A stretch of DNA of 36,980 nt from Neophaeotheca triangularis (lineage: Eukaryota), in contig BAAIJX010000018.1 in the NCBI GenBank assembly GCA_054600435.1, positions 372,001 through 408,980 of the forward strand, read 5' to 3'. Under the pieces are notes generated by a model. The model had not been told where the DNA came from. It made no database searches and saw only the letters and a list, made by a program, of their open reading frames with translations. Shown here in pieces: positions 4,950-36,234 of this stretch. Numbering within the stretch: position 1 is the stretch's first letter; each line of letters starts with the position of its first letter. The translations under genes were made by a program, and so were the position numbers.

Positions 4950-6831
4950 TTAGAACATGCCGCCGCCCATGCCGCCCATACCACCCATGCCACCCATGCC
5001 ACCACCGGGCATGCCACCACCTGGTGGGCCCTTCTCCTCAGGTGCCTCGACAATGGCAACCTCAGTGGTACCGAGGAGGGAGGCAACACCGGAAGCGTCC
5101 ATCAGGCCCGTGCGCACAACCTTGAAGGGGTCCAGAATACCGGCAGCGATCATGTCAATGTACTCGCCCTTTTGGCTGTCGAAACCGCGGTTGAAGTCCT
5201 TGCCATAGTCGTCCATGAGCTTGCCAACGACGACACTGCCCTCAGCACCTGCGTTCTCGACAATGGTCCTTGCGGGGCGGGTGATGGCCGACTTGACAAT
5301 AGACACACCGAGCTGCTGGTCAAAGTTGGCGGGCTTCAAGTCGTTGAGGGCGTTTGCGGCGGCCTTGAGGAGAGCGGTACCGCCACCGGGAAGGATACCC
5401 TCCTCGACGGCGGCGCGAGTGGCGTTCAGAGCATCGACCATACGGTCCTTCTTCTCTCCGACCTCAACCTCTGAGCTGCCACCAACCTTGATGACGGCAA
5501 CACCGCCAGAAAGCTTGGCGAGACGCTCCTGCAGCTTCTCCTTCTCGTAATCGCTAGTAGTGGGGTCGGACATGACACCACGGATCTGTTCGCAGCGCTG
5601 GGCCACAGCGTCCTTGGAGCCCTCGCCGTTGAGGACGACAGTGTCCTCCTTGGTGATGGTGATGGAGCCAGTGGAGCCGAGCATGTCGGCGGTAGCCTTC
5701 TCAAGCTTGATGTCGAGCTCGTCCGTGAAAACAGTACCGTTAGTAAGGACAGCGAGGTCGCCAAGGATGCTCTTGCGGTTGTCACCAAAGCCGGGTGCCT
5801 TGACGGCGGCGACATTCAGCTGGCCACGGAGCTTGTTGAGAATGCAGACGGCAAGAGCCTCGCCCTCAATGTCCTCAGCGATGATGACAAGAGGACGGCG
5901 GAGCTGCTGCGAAGCCTCGAGCGCGGGCACAATGTCCTGGACGGCAGAGATCTTCTTCTCAGAGAGCAGGATGAGAGGCTTCTCCATCTCAACCTTCTGG
6001 GCCTTGGTGTCTGTGATGAAGTAGGGCGAGATGAAACCACGGTCGAACTTCATACCCTCAGTGACCTCCAGCTCGTCCTCAATGGTCTTGCCCTCCTTGA
6101 CGGTGATAACACCTTCCTTGCCGACTTTCTCCATTGCCTGCGAAAGAAGCTTGCCGATGTGGGTGTCGCCGTTGGCAGAGATGGTGGCGACTTGGCTAAT
6201 CTCCTCGCTTGTGGTAATGTCCCTCTTGTTCTGTTGCAGGTAGTTGACGACGGCCTCAACGGCGGCCTGGGTGCCTCTGCGAAGGTCCATGGGGTTGCAG
6301 CCGGCGGCGACATTCTTGACGGTCTCGGAGAAGATGGCGCGAGCAAGGACAGTAGCAGTGGTAGTACCGTCGCCGGCAACCTCGTTGGTCTTGCCGGCAA
6401 CGTCCTGAAGCAGGCGGGCTCCCAAGTTCTCGAACTTGTCTTGCAGAGATACAGCCCTGGCAACGGTGACACCGTCTGACACGTTGTCAGTATGTAAGAC
6501 TTGTATTTCCATGCCGTCTCTTTTTATGTACCCTTTGTGATCTTTGGCGAGCCATAGCTGGACTCAATCAGGACATTCCTGCCCTTGGGACCCAGAGTGG
6601 TGGCTACAGCTCTTGCGAGCGTGTCAACACCCTGGAGAAGTGCAGCTCGTCCCTCAACGCCGAACTTGAGATCCTGTAGAGCTAAATGTCAACACGTTGT
6701 CCGGGAAGAGCGCTCATTGCTCATTTGGTTCCTACCTTGTGAGCAAATCGTTGCTGGATCAATGAGCCGGGTCTCGCGCGCTGCGAAGTGCGGATGGCAG
6801 CCCTGGGGGCGGTAGCGAATGCGCGCTGCAT
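4950..6831 (-). CDS. HSP60: Mitochondrial chaperonin Hsp60; exons 6831-6736, 6673-6532, 6475-4950
   Basis: Arg-rich presequence [10 protein letters not shown]...[37 protein letters not shown]-terminal GGM repeats. Two GT-AG introns (6735-6674, 6531-6476) join the frames. Confidence 0.98.
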
Positions 6832-28181: not shown

Positions 28182-28633
28182 GATTGCCGGGATATACTTT
28201 ATGCGAGATTTGGAGAAGATTGTGGCAACGAGAGATGGGACGGGATGAGATGAGACGGGGGGGAGGAGAAGAAGAGAGTATATAAAGAAGAGTAGAGTAG
28301 GTACGTCTTGGTACGGGGTAGCGATAACGTACGTACAATGTATTTCTCATGCCATTGAGCAATCTTGGACGATATGCATGGATAGGTAGGGTAAGTAATA
28401 TTGAATACGAGACGATACCTGATATGTAAGTATATGCGGAGCTGGTCATACCTTGGCGAGGTGACCAAGTGACTCTTGAGCACTCACGGCGTGGAACAGA
28501 ACGTCGTGTGTTCCGCCGCCTCCACTCGTTATCTTTTTCTTATCTATTCGCCTATAACTCACTAGTCCCTCTGGATTTGGCTTAGTCGCCGCTCAGTCTG
28601 TCGCGCGCCAATAATGACTTCAAGTTTGGCCAC

Positions 28634-28681: not shown

Positions 28682-29303
28682 GAATCTGGGAGACGGCATC
28701 GGCCAGACCTCCCAACTTCACTTCCCTTCCCTTCACTTCATCTTGCCTTGGTCTCGTGACTTGTCTTGTTTTCCAGCCAGATATTGTTGTGCTTAGACAA
28801 TGCTGGCATCTTTTGTCACTTGTGTTCATAAAGTGAAGCGGTTGGACCGACGCTATGTATTCTACTCATTGTGCTGGCTTCTTATCTGCCACAAGGCGAC
28901 CATCATGCATTCCCCCTTGTAAGCATAGCATATAAATCGTTGTTGAGGTACAGTCAGGCTGCTCAATACCTACTGAATAGCTTTGAGCAGATATACAGCC
29001 GTTACATGTGTGAGGTTAGGAAGGCTCTCGGGAAACCCGCACCACGCACAAGGACAGTCCGCCGCCGTAGTGCACCGCCTCACCACCCTATCATATTCGG
29101 TGACGGGATATTAGACTTGGAAAACGCCCGTCAACTATGGAAACCATCTTGCTAATACTCTATAATACCCATCAACAAAGGCGTCTGATAGGTCAGTCGG
29201 CACATTCGACACTGAGGACATTCCAGCGCCAAGACATCAAACCTTGAATACTGACTTGACCCCTGCATGGTCTGTTTGGCTTCACTGAGGACATTAGGAC
29301 TAC

Positions 29304-29380
29304 TTATTGTCGTCGTTGCTTCACTGACGATGCTTCCATTGAGAGAGATGGTAATGCCTATTGTCGTCGCTGCTATTGTC
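29304..29380 (+). promoter_or_regulatory. CTATTGTC motif cluster upstream of orphan A
   Basis: Exact copies at 29358 and 29373; TTATTGTC at 29304. Confidence 0.6.
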
Positions 29381-29572
29381 CTCGATCATCTATCCAAGTA
29401 CAAATTTCGTTTACTCTAGCTCTGGAGCTCTACCTTCTTCTCCACCACTCAACAACCTGAGATTACTCTTCACGAATTACCCCTCTTCCTTCGCACTACG
29501 CCCTTTACATTGCAGAAAAAACATCATCGCCCTCTTTCACGCATAACTATATACCGCACCAACAAAGAATCA

Positions 29573-30469
29573 ATGCAGACCAGCTTCGAGCAAAAACACA
29601 CCATCGACCTCGGCCACTGCATTCTCGACCCAAAGCGAAAGCACAGCATCACAGACCCTATTATAACTGGCGAGCCAAAAGCCAAGAGACAGCGCGTCTA
29701 TTATGGGATGTCTGACACCGATCACAACCCCAACGAGCTCTACTTCGAGGCCACGCCCGATATACCCAGCCAACGAATACCGAACGAGCTCGAGTCTCCC
29801 ACCAAAACCGAGCCAGACACCGACATATATGGCTCTGGATACAACGTCGACGAGCCTTACTTCAAAGCCGAGCCAGACATCCCTAGTCAGCGGATCCCAA
29901 ACGAGCTCGAGTCTCCCGCGGAAACCGAGCCCCACGCGGAACCGCAGCAACTCGAGCCCCCACCCCAACAGCCCGAAATCGACGCGCGAGGAAGACCAAT
30001 ACTCTCCGTCCAAACCAGTTTCGGTGACACACCACCACCACCCCTCGAAGTCGTCTATCCACCAGAACCACAAGACGAACCCCGTTGGCGGGGCTGGTAC
30101 TCACCCTTGAGCCCACCCAGCCCCACGGGCCCCCTCTCACCCGAGCTCCCACCAACTCCACCGCCCCGCTCGCCTCCAACTTCTCCCCAATACAACCCAC
30201 TCTCTCCACCCCCGCTCCAGCCATCGCCGCCCCCGCCATACTGGAACCAAGAGCCGGAAACCGCCACCGCCTCTCTCCCACCATCTCCCGGCGGAGATCC
30301 CTGGTGGCCCGCCTCTCCCGGCCACGACCCCCGTGACGACGAGATCGCCGAGCTCAAGCGCAAAGTCGCGTTGCAGAAAGCTGTCATCGGCGCTCTGAGG
30401 GACGAGGTGGCGTTGCAGCATAGACGGGTTATTGTCTTGGAGGCTCGGAGGAGGTTTGAGCCGGAGTGA
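29573..30469 (+). CDS. Orphan A, 298 aa: bipartite NLS, 39-aa internal duplication, Pro/Ser-rich region, C-terminal coiled coil
   Basis: First ATG in the ORF; KRKH-x-PKAKRQR; duplicated PDIPSQRIPNELESP differs only synonymously; EIAELKRKVALQKAVIGALRDEV. Confidence 0.8.
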   Translation: MQTSFEQKHTIDLGHCILDPKRKHSITDPIITGEPKAKRQRVYYGMSDTDHNPNELYFEATPDIPSQRIPNELESPTKTEPDTDIYGSGYNVDEPYFKAEPDIPSQRIPNELESPAETEPHAEPQQLEPPPQQPEIDARGRPILSVQTSFGDTPPPPLEVVYPPEPQDEPRWRGWYSPLSPPSPTGPLSPELPPTPPPRSPPTSPQYNPLSPPPLQPSPPPPYWNQEPETATASLPPSPGGDPWWPASPGHDPRDDEIAELKRKVALQKAVIGALRDEVALQHRRVIVLEARRRFEPE

Positions 30470-30917
30470 GGGAGGGATGGGAAGCGGGGAAAGGGGTCAG
30501 CTGGGTTGGGTTTAGCGAGGTTTTGGGGGGTCGGTATGTTCTCGGCTGTGGTAGTTGATGAACATCTTAGGGGGTATGCTGTTGTTTTTACATCGAGATT
30601 GTCTTGTTGTTTAGCGATTGTGTAGCGTGGTGGGAGCGTTTTCGCTGTGGTATATGGCCGAGAAGATCGGTTGCGTTGCTTCCTTGGTTGCTTCTTAGTT
30701 CATATACCCTATATTGCGATCTAATGGAATTCACTTGCTTGGCTCCCGGCCGGCATCCTTACTAAACTTGCCACCAACGTCACATTGTAGTGGAGCGAAT
30801 CTCACCTGATTAACTCAACGTCTTCCACCATGGCCCCTGACTTTGATGTGGAGTAAAAAAGGGGAGAGTGAATCCAGTTGCTCTTGCCTGGCCTTGTACC
30901 CTCACGGCCTCGAACGT

Positions 30918-31031
30918 CTATTGTCAGTGAGCTCATGTAGCGTCCCCTGGCTATTGTCGCCGGCCTATCCATTGTCGGCACAATACCATTGAGCCAACCC
31001 TCGCCAACCTATTGTTGCGCTTGCCATTGTC
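30918..31031 (+). promoter_or_regulatory. CTATTGTC motif cluster upstream of orphan B
   Basis: Exact copies at 30918 and 30951; variants CCATTGTC at 30969 and 31024, CTATTGTT at 31009. Confidence 0.6.
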
Positions 31032-31123
31032 GTCCTGAACATATAACCAACCAAACCCACCAAGAGACACTCTCTTCCTCTTCCCCCCAAAAGACCACAC
31101 CACAAGCAAACCCCCAACCAACC

Positions 31124-31639
31124 ATGGGCAACATCATAACCACTCTCAGCGGCCGGTCCGCTCCCCTCACGGCCCCGCCCACCCCAACCACGCCCCCAGC
31201 TCCCACCGGCCAGAAGCGCAAACGCCACCCCTCAGAGCCAGAAACCCCAACCGAGAGCCGCCCCAAAAAACGCCCGCGAACCCCAAACTTCCGCCTCCTC
31301 CCTCACGACAAAATCTCCACATTCACGACAACACGCTTCCCGGCCCGCAACCCGCGCACCCTCACCCTCACGCTCCTACCGCGCGATGCTCCGGCCCTCC
31401 ACCGCGCCCCAGTCAATCCCCGCCACTACTGGGCCCCTCGCGACCCCGTGCCGCCGAAGCCGTACCTGCTGGAGAATGTCGAGAATCCGTCGCCGGTGGA
31501 GTCGGAGTGCTCGCCTGCGGAATTGGTGAGGGAGGTTATGGAGGTTAGGAGGAGGGTTGAAGGGGCTAGGGAGGAGTGGGCTAGGGGGTTGCGGACCGCG
31601 GTTGTGAGGAGGTTTGAGCGGTCGCCGCGGTCGAGGTAG
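31124..31639 (+). CDS. Orphan B, 171 aa: MGNIIT start, bipartite NLS, charged C-terminal helix
   Basis: ACCATGG start context after a C/A-rich leader; KRKRHPSEPETPTESRPKKRPR; ELVREVMEVRRRVEGAREEW. Confidence 0.65.
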   Translation: MGNIITTLSGRSAPLTAPPTPTTPPAPTGQKRKRHPSEPETPTESRPKKRPRTPNFRLLPHDKISTFTTTRFPARNPRTLTLTLLPRDAPALHRAPVNPRHYWAPRDPVPPKPYLLENVENPSPVESECSPAELVREVMEVRRRVEGAREEWARGLRTAVVRRFERSPRSR

Positions 31640-32071
31640 TTGCGGCTAGGGCTGGGGAGGGGTTTGTTGGAGTTGAGGGCCGGGGGTACCGGGGGGTTTT
31701 GTTGGGGTGGATATATGGCTTTTTCGATTGGGTTGTTTCGCTGCTGTTGTGTTCGGTGCTTCGTTCTTGGTGAGGTGTTTGTTACTGTTTATCCGTTTCT
31801 TTGTCGTGGGGTGCGCCCTGTTCTTGTCGAGCCTTTGCTGAGCTGCCACTGTGGTATTGTTCGTGCAATTGGAAAAGCCGCCGGGGAGAGACAGTCTGTT
31901 GCTATCAAGATGCAATGGTGCCCGCTCAGCTTTTATGTTGCCACCTGCAGCGGGGAAGCCTTGGAGATGCTAGACTACCCATATTACAGCGCTGAGCAGG
32001 CTTGTCTAGATGTTAGCGTTTGCCTCTTACTATATTCCGGCCAGGGACGCCAGCTATGGATCAGTTGGTAT

Positions 32072-32307
32072 AGATTGTCGATGGCCAGAATGTCATCGTT
32101 GTTATTGGACAACAGGCTGACAGGAGCACGCTCTCTTATTGTAGTGGATGCATCCGGATCGATCAACTCCTATTGTCCCATAGTCGATCCCTTCACTTAG
32201 TGGACACCGATCTTGCTATTGTCGACTCGCATTGACGATTCATGGTCCTATTGTCATCATGATCGTGAGACGACAACGTCCAGACTATTGTCGGATCTGC
32301 TATTGTC
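32072..32307 (+). promoter_or_regulatory. CTATTGTC motif cluster upstream of orphan C
   Basis: Exact copies at 32170, 32216, 32248, 32285 and 32300; AGATTGTC at 32072. Confidence 0.65.
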
Positions 32308-32544
32308 AGTGTCAGATACATACTCGACTCCGCCGTAGTCTCCTTCCACGCTCCTCTTCTCTTACTGCAGAACATACCACAGCACGAATCGTCTTCGCAA
32401 GTCTACCGTACGTTGAACCTTCAACTCTCCGCACATCGCAGCCCAATACCACCTCCAGCACAAGCACTAATGCATCAACCCTCAGAAAATCACCGCAATC
32501 AATTCCAAAACAATACCACCAACCCAACCCAATCAATCAAAATC

Positions 32545-33321
32545 ATGCCCAAAACAACCAAGCGCAGCCGGCCTGCCTCCTCCTCAACCGCCTCAGAGCC
32601 CCAAAAAAAGAAAGCCCGCATCCCTCTCGGCCAGCCCCTGAACCTCACCGACAGCAACTACCACGCCTTCAGCACCAAAGCCAACCCCCCGCCCGCGCCG
32701 AAAGGCCCCAGCACCACCAACACCACCACCCCCTTCCTCGACGGGAGCCCCCCTCCCACTCCCAAACGGAGCCCACGGAAAGCTCCCAGCGGTGTCGAAA
32801 GCACCGAAGCGCACCTCGCTCTCGCCGACCGAGAAGAAGCCTGCCGCCAGCGCGAGCAAGACTGCAACCACCGCGAGAAGATGCAGGAATTGCGCTGGGA
32901 TCTTCTCAACTACACGGGCGAGCGGCAGGATGGCGAGGGGGAGCGTCTCGCGGAGAAGGAGGCGGGGCTGGAGGCGAAGGAAGCGGAGCTGGAGGAGAAG
33001 AATGCGGCCTTGGAGCAATTTTACATCGATCTCGATGCCAGGAATTGGGAGGAGTGGCGGAAGAGGTGGCAGAAGGTGGAGATGAGGGAGGAGGTGGTGG
33101 GGAAGAGGGAGTGGGAGTTTGGGCATGAGGTTTATGCTGAGGAGATGCGGCTGTGGCGGAAGAATCAGCGGGTTAAGGAGAGGCTGGAGCGGGTTTTGGT
33201 CTTGGTGGGGGATACGACTACGGAGTTTGCCATGAATTTGGGCGAGATCAAGAAGTATCAGGATCGTTTGAGGGCGGAGTTTTCTGGAGATTTTGACGAC
33301 GAGGTGCCGGAAGTGAAGTAG
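32545..33321 (+). CDS. Orphan C, 258 aa: N-terminal bipartite NLS, Pro/Thr-rich linker, long Glu/Arg/Lys coiled coil
   Basis: AAAATCATG start context; MPKTTKRSR-x-PQKKKAR; LAEKEAGLEAKEAELEEKNAALEQ heptads. Confidence 0.78.
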   Translation: MPKTTKRSRPASSSTASEPQKKKARIPLGQPLNLTDSNYHAFSTKANPPPAPKGPSTTNTTTPFLDGSPPPTPKRSPRKAPSGVESTEAHLALADREEACRQREQDCNHREKMQELRWDLLNYTGERQDGEGERLAEKEAGLEAKEAELEEKNAALEQFYIDLDARNWEEWRKRWQKVEMREEVVGKREWEFGHEVYAEEMRLWRKNQRVKERLERVLVLVGDTTTEFAMNLGEIKKYQDRLRAEFSGDFDDEVPEVK

Positions 33322-33940
33322 CAAGTGGGAGATGGTGGTCGATAGTCGGTTGGATTTACTTGAGGCGTTCTGGTATCTATTCGTGTCATACTTGAAATCG
33401 TTTATGTCCTTCCTCACTCACCGGTCAAAGTGTCCAGTAAAGGAGTTCAAGAAGGGTAAAAAGAAAGCCTCTAGCAACTTAAGCACTAGAAGGAAAGTAA
33501 ACTCATTCAATGAAGAAATTGGTTTAGCTTTCGTGACAGTTGTACTTAACGTCGGTGAACTGCACGACGCCTCAGTCGCCGATTTGAGGTCGTAACTGAG
33601 GGAGGGGACGGGCGCTACCACGAGGTTTCAAACCCAAGTATTTTGGAGAATGGGAGAGTAGGATCTAGATTAAGTCAGCTGGCGTCCAGATCAAGAAGAT
33701 GGGATTAGAAGGGCGAACATACCGACTGCGCCACCGGGTGGATTTGTTGAAGTGCTTCGCTAGAGGTTCGGTGCATCGTCTGTAGTCGACAGCTCTTCTC
33801 ACCAAAGGGAGTCTTGGCGCAGTTGACGCTTCACCTCCTTTGTCACGTGGTAGCTTCTCTTTCCTCAAACGTTCACCCTCGTCACCTAGATTTCAAGTGA
33901 ATGATCCGCGTCGGTTGCTTGGACGACCAAGCTTCGTTAT

Positions 33941-33995
33941 CGATTGTCAGGTGTCTTGCTGTGGTATCATGGTCGATTGAGCTGCAGCTATTGTC
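33941..33995 (+). promoter_or_regulatory. CTATTGTC motif upstream of orphan D
   Basis: Exact copy at 33988; CGATTGTC at 33941. Confidence 0.45.
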
Positions 33996-34123
33996 GGCAC
34001 CGTGCATCCATCTCGTCAACTTTGGTCTCTCGCTAGCCTTACCTGACAAAACACTGTGGGTGCCCGTCTCCTCCACACCCTCCCTCAAGACTAACAGCCT
34101 CCAAGCGAGCGACCGCGACGATC

Positions 34124-34885
34124 ATGAGCCCCGTCCCGCGCAACCGCAAACGCGCCGCCGTCGTCGACACGAACACTTCCCAAGAACAACACAGATCCCC
34201 CAAACGCGCCCGCCACCCTTCTCTCAACACCACAGCCTTCCTCGACACTTCAATAAGATCATACCATCAGCATCAACAAATCGTCTCGCAACAGAGACTC
34301 CCAGCCCCGCAAAACTCCAGCAATGAGCTCCCACGTACCGCTCACGTCGAACCCCCCTTCAGCCCCGGGCCAACTTACATGCTTGACAATGACACATCCC
34401 GTACCGCTCACGCTGGAATCCCACTCAGCCCCCGACCTACGTACATGCCCAACACCATCATCGAAACGATCGAGAAAGCCGCCGAGAGAAACCTCAACAC
34501 CGCCAGCGACAACGGACCCGTTGAAACCTCATCCCAAGCCAGCAGCGCCTCCGACCAACCCGACGTCTCCGGCGCCTCGATCAACGCGTCCAAGAAAGCC
34601 AAGCCCGCCTCTCCCACCCCCTTACGAACCACGCAAGCCAGCGTCGCGGCCAACACTTTCGACCCCACCTATGCCGAAGACGTGGAAAGAGCCGCTGGAC
34701 AAAAAGTCCAAGAGCTGCGAGCGATGCTGCAAGCGCTGACGAAGCATATTAGCAATTTGGAGGCGAGGAATCGAGAAGCCGAGGCCAAGGTCAAGGTGTT
34801 GGAAGCCGCGATTTTGGAAGCTAGAGTTGAGGCCGGGATGAGGGCGGAGAAGATGAAGGTGGCGGCGGAGTTGCTTGGGGGGTGA
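34124..34885 (+). CDS. Orphan D, 253 aa: N-terminal bipartite NLS, 22-aa internal duplication, C-terminal coiled coil
   Basis: ATCATG start context; RNRKR-x-SPKRAR; RTAHVEPPFSPGPTYM / RTAHAGIPLSPRPTYM; VQELRAMLQALTKHISNLEARNREAEAKVKVLEAAI. Confidence 0.75.
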   Translation: MSPVPRNRKRAAVVDTNTSQEQHRSPKRARHPSLNTTAFLDTSIRSYHQHQQIVSQQRLPAPQNSSNELPRTAHVEPPFSPGPTYMLDNDTSRTAHAGIPLSPRPTYMPNTIIETIEKAAERNLNTASDNGPVETSSQASSASDQPDVSGASINASKKAKPASPTPLRTTQASVAANTFDPTYAEDVERAAGQKVQELRAMLQALTKHISNLEARNREAEAKVKVLEAAILEARVEAGMRAEKMKVAAELLGG

Positions 34886-35604: not shown

Positions 35605-36234
35605 TCAAGCCTTCTCAAGCGCCTTGGCCAACTCCCTCCCCAAAGTCTCTAATTCCCCAACATCGCCTTTCTGCGGCCCTTGTCTCTCCAAAGCCAATCC
35701 ACTGTCCACCCACTCCTTGGCCTCCTCTTTCCTCCCCATCTCACGCAAGCAAACACCCCTCCTCCACCAGCCCTTGACATTCCCCACCTTCTTGACCTCA
35801 ACCGCCACCTCGGCATCCACAGCCCCTTCAGCCCAGTTCTGCTGCGTCATGTGCACCTGCGCGCGGTTGTTGTACAACGCCGACATCTCCTCTCGCACGA
35901 GGCCGGAAGCTTCCCAGCCGGGACGATCGGCGGCCATTTTGAGCGCGAGGTTGTAGAAGTTCAGGGCTTCCTCGTAAGAACCCTTTTTGTAGGATGCGTT
36001 GCCGGATTCGCGGAGTTTGGTGATTTGGACCGAGCGTTTGGGGTTTACGGGAGCGGGAGGTGTGGGTACTTGGTTGGGGGTCTCGAGGGCGAGGACTTGA
36101 CGGTGGAGTTTGTTGAGTTCTTCGAGTTGAGCTTCGAGGGCTGGGTCGGAGGTGGTGGTTGAGATGGCTTTGGTGGAGGGGTCGATGGTTAGGGGGAGTT
36201 GATGGAAAGTGTCGACAGGGGATTGCGCGGCCAT
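35605..36234 (-). CDS. SEC72: Translocation protein Sec72 (TPR subunit of the Sec63 complex), 209 aa
   Basis: LPLTIDPSTKAI, LEELNKLHR, PPAPVNPKRS, KLRESGN, RPGWEASGLVREE, KGWWRRG TPR pattern. Confidence 0.88.
   Translation of the reverse strand: MAAQSPVDTFHQLPLTIDPSTKAISTTTSDPALEAQLEELNKLHRQVLALETPNQVPTPPAPVNPKRSVQITKLRESGNASYKKGSYEEALNFYNLALKMAADRPGWEASGLVREEMSALYNNRAQVHMTQQNWAEGAVDAEVAVEVKKVGNVKGWWRRGVCLREMGRKEEAKEWVDSGLALERQGPQKGDVGELETLGRELAKALEKA

Follow-up and report, generated by a model that had tools for sequence, protein, structure and literature searches.

Four consecutive genes (g1–g4) of Neophaeotheca triangularis are preceded by copies of one short word, CTATTGTC, and the locus raises the question of whether these copies are a shared control element and, if they are, at which level and through what kind of factor they would act. 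We examined the window, a stretch of 36,980 nt (GCA_054600435.1, contig BAAIJX010000018.1, positions 372,001–408,980 of the forward strand), in which CTATTGTC occurs 11 times when both strands are counted. Dinucleotide shuffles of the window, also counted on both strands, gave a mean of 0.76 copies and a maximum of 4, and none of the 100 shuffles reached 11. The initial annotation had put the chance frequency at 0.07 copies per 4.7 kb of one strand, a reasonable figure that corresponds to uniform base composition. The ten exact + strand copies that it had listed were all recovered, and 10 of 10 fall in the regions upstream of g1–g4 (P1–P4, Table 1). The single reverse copy that it had placed near 5295 in HSP60 was confirmed at 5295 on the − strand, within the − strand Cpn60 ORF (4950–6512); apart from this exact copy the element is private, within the window, to the four upstream regions. 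Mismatch variants had also been noted near the exact copies, and we found five + strand copies with one mismatch in the same four regions and five more, with two mismatches and an ATTGT core, on the + strand in the intergenic DNA among g1–g4. The claim that no copy lies inside the coding sequences holds for exact copies but not for the one-mismatch form TTATTGTC, which is found in g1 at 30429. Only three 8-mers are common to all four upstream regions; CTATTGTC ranked first and the remaining two overlap it. With two to five sites in each of the four promoters, the motif is over-represented in the promoter of every member of the putative regulon.

The proposed sense-strand specificity was borne out: the four upstream regions hold 15 exact or one-mismatch sites, every one of which lies on the + strand, and the − strand of the interval 28800–34200 holds four weak matches only (29290, 30979, 32108 and 32509) and no exact one. 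Exact copies lie 136–375 bp 5′ of four consecutive + strand ORFs, in agreement with the 135–375 bp given earlier: the distances to the ATG are 215 and 200 bp for g1, 206 and 173 bp for g2, 375 to 245 bp for g3 (from the ATG at 32545) and 136 bp for g4. An array precedes each gene, g1 included, though g1 has no same-strand gene upstream, and no array was detected 3′ of g4, which fits a location upstream of genes and not one downstream of them. Start-to-start spacings are 54 and 15 bp in P1, 33, 18, 40 and 15 bp in P2, 46, 32, 37 and 15 bp in P3 and 47 bp in P4. The base counts over the 15 sites are C14 T12 A15 T15 T15 G15 T15 C14, the minority bases being T (once) at position 1, C (twice) and G (once) at position 2 and T (once) at position 8; at +1, 13 of the 15 have a purine (G or A). 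ATTGT is intact throughout (15/15), the 8-mer is perfect in 10 of the 15, and the information summed over the eight positions is ~14.7 bits.

P1–P3 have a common architecture in which the last two copies before the gene make up a direct pair at 15 bp spacing, followed by a TATA-like box and then by a pyrimidine-rich tract, and the 23-nt composite CTATTGTY-N7-CYATTGTC is common to these three promoters. Since the TATA-like box and the pyrimidine-rich tract come 3′ of the array, the array is likely to be upstream of the transcription start, which, judging from the sequence, is probably located in the pyrimidine-rich tract, 20–65 bp past the TATA-like box. Each cluster also contains the last ATG upstream of its gene (29354, 30935, 32259 and 33969), and the 152–216 nt beyond it are free of ATG.

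Table 1. Sites, putative promoter elements and genes of the locus (positions in the window)
Feature	Position	Strand	Remark
P1 distal site, TTATTGTC	29304..29311	+	one mismatch
P1 proximal direct pair, CTATTGTC-N7-CTATTGTC	29358..29380	+	starts 29358, 29373; 15 bp start to start
P1 TATA-like box, GATCATCTATCCAA	29384..29397	+	putative; 3 bp past pair; aligns with P2 and P3 boxes
g1	29573..30469	+	298-aa Pro-rich ORF; basic patches; internal 117-bp duplication; helical C-terminus
P2 distal sites	30918..30976	+	CTATTGTC 30918, CTATTGTC 30951, CCATTGTC 30969 (one mismatch)
P2 proximal direct pair, CTATTGTT-N7-CCATTGTC	31009..31031	+	starts 31009, 31024; one mismatch each
P2 TATA-like box, GAACATATAACCAA	31037..31050	+	TATAA at 31042
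P2 CT-rich tract	31072-31101		3′ of TATA-like box
g2	31124..31639	+	171-aa ORF; KRKR and KKRPR basic patches
P3 distal sites, CTATTGTC	32170..32255	+	starts 32170, 32216, 32248
P3 proximal direct pair, CTATTGTC-N7-CTATTGTC	32285..32307	+	starts 32285, 32300
P3 TATA-like position, GATACATACTCGA	32315..32327	+	
P3 CT-rich tract	32339-32368		3′ of TATA-like position
g3	32545..33321	+	258-aa ORF; alternative in-frame ATG 32470
P4 sites	33941..33995	+	CGATTGTC 33941 (one mismatch), CTATTGTC 33988
P4 degenerate partner, CGATTGAG	33974	+	
P4 CT-rich tract	34063-34092		3′ of sites
g4	34124..34885	+	253-aa ORF; N-terminal basic patch

The four genes are adjacent, single-exon and fast-evolving, and their products are putative disordered, nuclear-type, coiled-coil proteins. 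The structure models of g3 and g4 both have a disordered N-terminal part, together with a single long helix (residues 88–246) in g3 and a long, confidently modelled C-terminal helix (181–252) in g4. Homology searches among candidates of similar length returned self-matches only for g1, g2 and g3, and g3 had no usable match in Atlas; g4 had one full-length relative (34% identity). No Pfam family scored above its cut-off for any of g1–g4, paralogy among the four proteins was undetectable by BLASTP (best E 0.04, g3 versus g4), and no tRNA or Rfam match turned up, either in the window or when 33300–33800 was searched by itself.

A tandem repeat or minisatellite was rejected, as none of the four clusters registered as an array in TRF and the spacing is not constant. 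The raw alignment of P1 and P2 reached a score of 33, where 200 shuffles gave 28 at most; once the motif was masked, five of the six promoter pairs aligned at null level and P2–P3 was marginal, its score being reached by 5 of 300 shuffles. The earlier statement that the flanks differ, and that the copies are not a tandem duplication, stands on the TRF result and on the five masked pairs and has to be qualified for the 23-nt composite in three promoters. The motif is the only clearly common part of the promoters, and masking leaves no clear signal of shared descent. We give hardly any credence to the copies of CTATTGTC being functionless, neutral remnants of a promoter or segment duplication. 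Such an origin would agree with identities in the flanks (14/16 for 29304/29358, 12 nt for 30918/32300 and 11 nt for 30969/33988) and with the C-terminal RRFE of the protein and the 22-nt stretch of DNA that g1 and g2 have in common, but neither the masked promoters nor the four proteins are clearly similar, TRF finds no tandem arrays, and 15 same-orientation copies confined to four promoters are unlikely to arise by drift. Any duplication would have to be old, because the masked promoters and the proteins lack clear similarity, and the 8-mers are nonetheless still exact. The restriction to the sense strand would also be explained if the motif worked in RNA, as CUAUUGUC in 5′UTRs, with an RNA-binding protein setting translation or stability. 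Every copy is indeed on the sense strand, and the gene-nearest copies lie inside the ATG-free 152–216 nt before the start codons; yet, with the last upstream ATGs falling within the clusters, the distal copies (29304; 30918; 32170, 32216 and 32248; 33941) would be placed in leaders with upstream ATGs, and the TATA-like box and CT-rich tract are positioned 3′ of the clusters. A structured RNA element would be recognised by a stable or conserved fold or by an Rfam match, and neither was seen, the folds of the cluster RNAs giving z = 0.94, −0.52, −0.12 and −0.22 against shuffles. The 5′UTR-RNA alternative is disfavoured and seems quite improbable to us.

The reading that we prefer, with a probability of roughly 0.55, is a homotypic promoter-proximal array for one factor, most likely of the HMG-box type, that would co-control g1–g4. 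The copies of CTATTGTC would be DNA-level binding sites for one sequence-specific transcription factor, and each of the four adjacent, single-exon genes would have an array of 2–5 of them in its proximal promoter, all in one orientation; in P1–P3 the 15-bp-spaced direct pair would abut the TATA-like box, and transcription would start in the pyrimidine-rich tract beyond. Because the array comes before the TATA-like box and the probable start tract, it may act from upstream as a module that activates (or represses) g1–g4 jointly.

The type of factor is suggested by analogy. The yeast a2 HMG protein probably has a CATTGTC site. The initial annotation had likened the ATTGT core to SOX/MATA-type HMG sites, and this comparison was supported by its match to Rox1, F. 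graminearum MAT1-2-1 and SOX18 DNA as these are given in extracts of the papers cited here. In the Rox1 site, YYYATTGTTCTC, TTGT is essential and a change of T9 to C is tolerated, and the requirements are an A (or T) before TTGT, pyrimidines 5′ and then T, C or A (extract of PMC2763219); the 15 sites conform to this, all having ATTGT and either C (14/15) or T (1/15) at position 8. The core bound by F. graminearum MAT1-2-1 reads ATTGTT, and its PBM core ATTGTT / ATTGTTTAA (extract of PMC4559316), and the T after ATTGT is found here in just one of the 15 sites (31009), the other 14 reading ATTGTC. The SOX18 crystal DNA includes CATTGTC (extract of PMC4856986), and the C after TTGT in our sites is thus like that present in SOX18 DNA and tolerated by Rox1. 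Since ATTGT is invariant and the flanks, with their 5′ pyrimidines as in ROX1, SOX and MAT1-2-1 sites, fit YYATTGTY, an HMG-box protein of SOX/ROX1/MAT1-2-1 type is the most likely candidate. Unlike the sites of these proteins, CTATTGTC keeps strictly to one orientation, which is atypical for HMG sites, prefers C over T at position 8 (14/15) and forms 15-bp-spaced direct pairs beside a TATA-like box.

The site CTATTGAG of Penicillium MAT1-1-1 had been offered as a parallel, which breaks down because the alpha-box site, (T/C)(T/C)ATTGA(G/T/C) in the extract of PMC8022922, has the core A3T4T5G6A7, whereas position 7 here is T in 15/15 sites and A in 0/15. It is accordingly very unlikely that the CTATTGTC sites are targets of the alpha-box protein MAT1-1-1, even though the prefix CTATTG is common to them and the Penicillium/Aspergillus site and P4 has one degenerate CGATTGAG at 33974; moreover, the same extract gives 18 target promoters of A. 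fumigatus MAT1-1-1 with sites on both strands. A further likeness is found in tom1/tomA, itself a small, taxon-restricted nuclear protein gene, where several MAT-factor sites are grouped near the start codon (extract of PMC10512297). According to that extract the tom1 family is, unlike g1–g4, Eurotiomycete-restricted and has a C-terminal NLS and a PPxY motif, and we found no homology between it and g1–g4. The initial annotation had proposed a co-regulated regulon with a possible sexual or meiotic role. The oriented arrays might be the response element of a MAT1-2-1-like mating-type or sexual-cycle HMG factor and g1–g4 a lineage-specific, MAT-controlled island, a counterpart of tom1. We regard this as doubtful; if it were true, HMG-driven promoters would have a new, orientation-dependent composite architecture in the 15-bp pair that adjoins the TATA-like box.

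With 10 of 15 sites perfect over 8 bp, the word holds more information than is usual for a single HMG-box site, which makes another factor family possible. Somewhat unlikely in our estimation, such DNA-level co-regulation would involve a non-HMG factor (e.g. multi-finger C2H2 or Myb-like) or a directional element read together with the TATA-like box. It would suit the unusual exactness of the word with its ~14.7 bits, the strict orientation and the near-fixed distance to the TATA-like box in three promoters, all three of which are atypical of HMG sites, and the titles and abstracts returned by literature searches contained nothing on CTATTGTC as a fungal motif. The invariant ATTGT and the 5′ pyrimidine flank argue against it, as they match the HMG sites documented in the extracts cited, and no other factor family with an ATTGT core was identified.

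Homotypic site clusters in co-regulated neighbours are known from the pheromone-response elements of Ustilago and from the cluster-specific sites of fungal metabolite gene clusters. The arrays of g1–g4 are similar to these in the multiple copies of one word per promoter and in the adjacency of the genes, and differ from them in that no regulator or enzyme gene is present among g1–g4, whose products are instead putative disordered coiled-coil proteins, three of them with self-matches only. Although homotypic factor-site arrays as such are already known, the CTATTGTC arrays are a solid new cis-element lead. If they are real factor sites, they would give access to a hidden regulon of an airborne ascomycete that has been little studied, and the 8–9-bp word could reveal co-regulated genes genome-wide as well as their regulator. 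Young or rapidly evolving genes would then have gained or retained a common control element while the rest diverged, and the fixed orientation together with the 15-bp pair would make it simple to test how HMG-type activators depend on orientation and spacing. Should the arrays be an ordinary factor-site cluster, their value would be confined to annotation.

The locus was also compared with a relative (~95–99% identical) and with an air-metagenome contig. None of the 20 variants listed falls in the sites, but with 375 more variants outside this list the comparison has no power. A scan of metagenomes for CTATTGTYNNNNYTGCYATTGTC, uninformative about a regulon, returned at least 119 loci, most of them matching by chance or through 15-bp tandem repeats in coding sequence; among the matches listed, none showed blastn or tblastn homology to the window.

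Within the window of 36,980 bases, the 8-base word CTATTGTC, which has an ATTGT core, was counted 11 times; 100 dinucleotide-preserving shuffles averaged 0.76 copies and never gave more than 4. The initial annotation had placed ten copies on the plus strand, and an exact word count found every one of them at its claimed coordinate. All ten plus-strand copies of the window lay within the regions upstream (promoters 1–4) of four consecutive ORFs, g1–g4, and the remaining copy was located on the minus strand within the Cpn60 ORF (5295). When one mismatch was allowed, five extra plus-strand copies were detected upstream of g1–g4 (29304, 30969, 31009, 31024 and 33941) and one within the g1 coding region (30429). 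No comparable motif copy was found on the minus strand of the four upstream regions. The base counts for the 15 promoter sites, exact and one-mismatch, were C14 T12 A15 T15 T15 G15 T15 C14 at positions 1–8, and the position after the motif was G or A in 13 of the 15. Only three 8-mers were common to all four upstream regions; CTATTGTC was the top one and the other two overlapped it.

Genes g1–g4 with their upstream elements, and the adjoining TPR gene (window coordinates)
Feature	Position	Strand	Structure	Start-to-start spacings of upstream sites	Last upstream ATG	Pyrimidine-rich tract
g1	29573-30469	+	single-exon ORF	54, 15	29354	29477
g2	31124-31639	+	single-exon ORF	33, 18, 40, 15	30935	31072
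g3	32545-33321	+	single-exon ORF	46, 32, 37, 15	32259	32339
g4	34124-34885	+	single-exon ORF	47	33969	34063
TPR gene	35605-36234	-				

The clusters showed no tandem repeat, in agreement with the earlier claim that they had not arisen by tandem duplication. After masking of the motif, five of the six promoter pairs aligned no better than shuffles and the promoter 2–promoter 3 pair was marginal, its score being reached by 5 of 300 shuffles; CTATTGTC is therefore the only clearly shared promoter sequence. In three promoters the two gene-nearest copies formed a composite, CTATTGTY-N7-CYATTGTC (29358, 31009 and 32285), followed after 3–7 bp by a similar A/T-containing box (GATCATCTATCCAA, GAACATATAACCAA and GATACATACTCGA, the second of which contains TATAA). 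All four promoters then showed a tract rich in pyrimidines, as is typical of fungal start regions. The last upstream ATG of each gene lay inside the motif cluster and was followed by an ATG-free stretch of 152–216 nt. In promoter 4, CGATTGAG (33974-33981), with an ATTGA core, occupies the position of the pair's upstream member and starts 14 bp ahead of the exact copy at 33988.

We propose that the CTATTGTC arrays would act as promoter-proximal homotypic sites for one DNA-binding factor, and that this shared factor would couple g1–g4. Each of the four genes has an array on its 5' side, even g1, which lacks a same-strand upstream neighbour, and no array was found 3' of g4. The arrays therefore belong with the gene that follows them and not with the 3' end of the preceding gene. 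Since the TATA-like box and CT tract lie 3' of the last site and ATGs fall inside the clusters, most motif copies are probably upstream of the transcription start, which favours action at the DNA level; RNA folding of the four clusters gave no signal (z-scores 0.94 to -0.52). The same orientation of all 15 sites is best explained if the array and the core promoter together make up a fixed module. Strict orientation is atypical of HMG sites and leaves non-HMG families in play as binders of CTATTGTC.

For an HMG-box factor speaks the core itself, as the initial annotation had suggested. Rox1 binds YYYATTGTTCTC, with TTGT essential and T9 to C tolerated, and S. pombe Mat-Mc and C. albicans Rfg1 are described as binding the same site (PMC2763219). 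ATTGTT is the preferred site of the F. graminearum MAT1-2-1 HMG domain and TCTTTGTY that of FMF1 (PMC4559316, PMC11708053), and CATTGTC is contained in a SOX18 crystal DNA (PMC4856986). By sequence, CTATTGTC fits the class that these published sites represent. The suggested parallel with the alpha-box protein MAT1-1-1 failed: its site is given as (T/C)(T/C)ATTGA(G/T/C), listed on both strands (PMC8022922), and position 7 was T in 15 of 15 promoter sites versus A in the ATTGA core, so the sites do not conform to this type. A parallel in arrangement is offered by tom1: this small nuclear protein gene, taxon-restricted and described as the strongest Penicillium target of MAT1-1-1, has five MAT1-1-1 sites clustered beside its start codon (PMC10512297).

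In the protein collection, g1–g4 all appear as annotated proteins of a single 408,980-base contig, and none had a Pfam match above cut-off. A homology search among proteins of similar length returned only self-matches for g1, g2 and g3. An exhaustive HMMER search with g4 found three proteins: a fragment (98% identical), a protein of 2137 aa whose match was split over 10 stretches and which we took as a coiled-coil artefact, and a third protein from a cluster whose 323-aa member aligned over the full length of g4 (34% identity, E 2e-32), with the N-terminal basic patch and C-terminal helix conserved in the alignment. In the predicted models, the N-terminus of g3 is disordered and its residues 88-246 form a single long helix; in g4, residues 181-252 form a C-terminal helix modelled with confidence (pLDDT above 90). 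K/R-rich patches in all four proteins appear to resemble nuclear localisation signals. Similarity among the g1–g4 proteins was not detected (best BLASTP E-value 0.04). The C-termini of g1 and g2 are alike (…ARRRFEPE and …VRRFERS…), and a 22-nt stretch is common to both genes (30438-30459 and 31596-31617, 73% identity), which faintly hints at a common origin that BLASTP misses. g1 also carries an internal 117-bp direct duplication (29724-29940, 75% identity) that encodes a ...PDIPSQRIPNELESP... segment twice.

The window represents ordinary fungal chromosome and includes genes for alcohol dehydrogenase, seryl-tRNA synthetase, Cpn60, a lipid-droplet hydrolase, Kae1/TsaD, a BAR-domain protein and copper amine oxidase; g1–g4 sit between the last of these (minus strand) and the TPR gene. 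A sequencing run from a related strain (X3) showed an in-frame 66-bp deletion in g4 (34376-34441, codons 85-106) that takes out one of the internal ...PTYM... repeat copies, consistent with a coding gene. The same strain has 36 additional bases at 28425/28426, in the spacer that separates g1 from the amine-oxidase gene. Between g3 and g4 lies a dispersed repeat of ~120-175 bp (33448-33622), with contig depth ~7x that of its flanks in both assemblies of the organism and unrelated flanking sequence at its ends; it gave no tRNA and no Rfam match.

None of the titles and abstracts listed for CTATTGTC or the ATTGTC core treats the word as a fungal motif, and the matches look like primers or text on other subjects. 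Homotypic clusters of factor sites that have an HMG-type core and lie in neighbouring genes of one orientation are a well-known kind of feature; the unusual points are the strict orientation, the 15-bp pair adjoining a TATA-like box and a cargo made up entirely of orphans. On sequence grounds, the arrays offer a sound and testable lead to putative cis-regulation.

A metagenome pattern scan for the motif gave, among the matches listed, mostly chance or coding-repeat occurrences and none related to the g1–g4 locus. Suggestive, but picked out after the fact, are three related soil-metagenome contigs in which 5-6 CTATTGTY copies form an array in one orientation, 15-bp pairs included (L077, 1220-1400; L108, 300-430; L053, reverse strand). 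Some motif copies were kept between the diverged contig copies. A TATATATA box lay ~50 bp downstream of the array in L077 and L053, and L108 ends short of it. In L077 a 308-aa ORF that has no Pfam match ends ~40 bp before the array starts, and the array of these contigs may be an LTR-like promoter.
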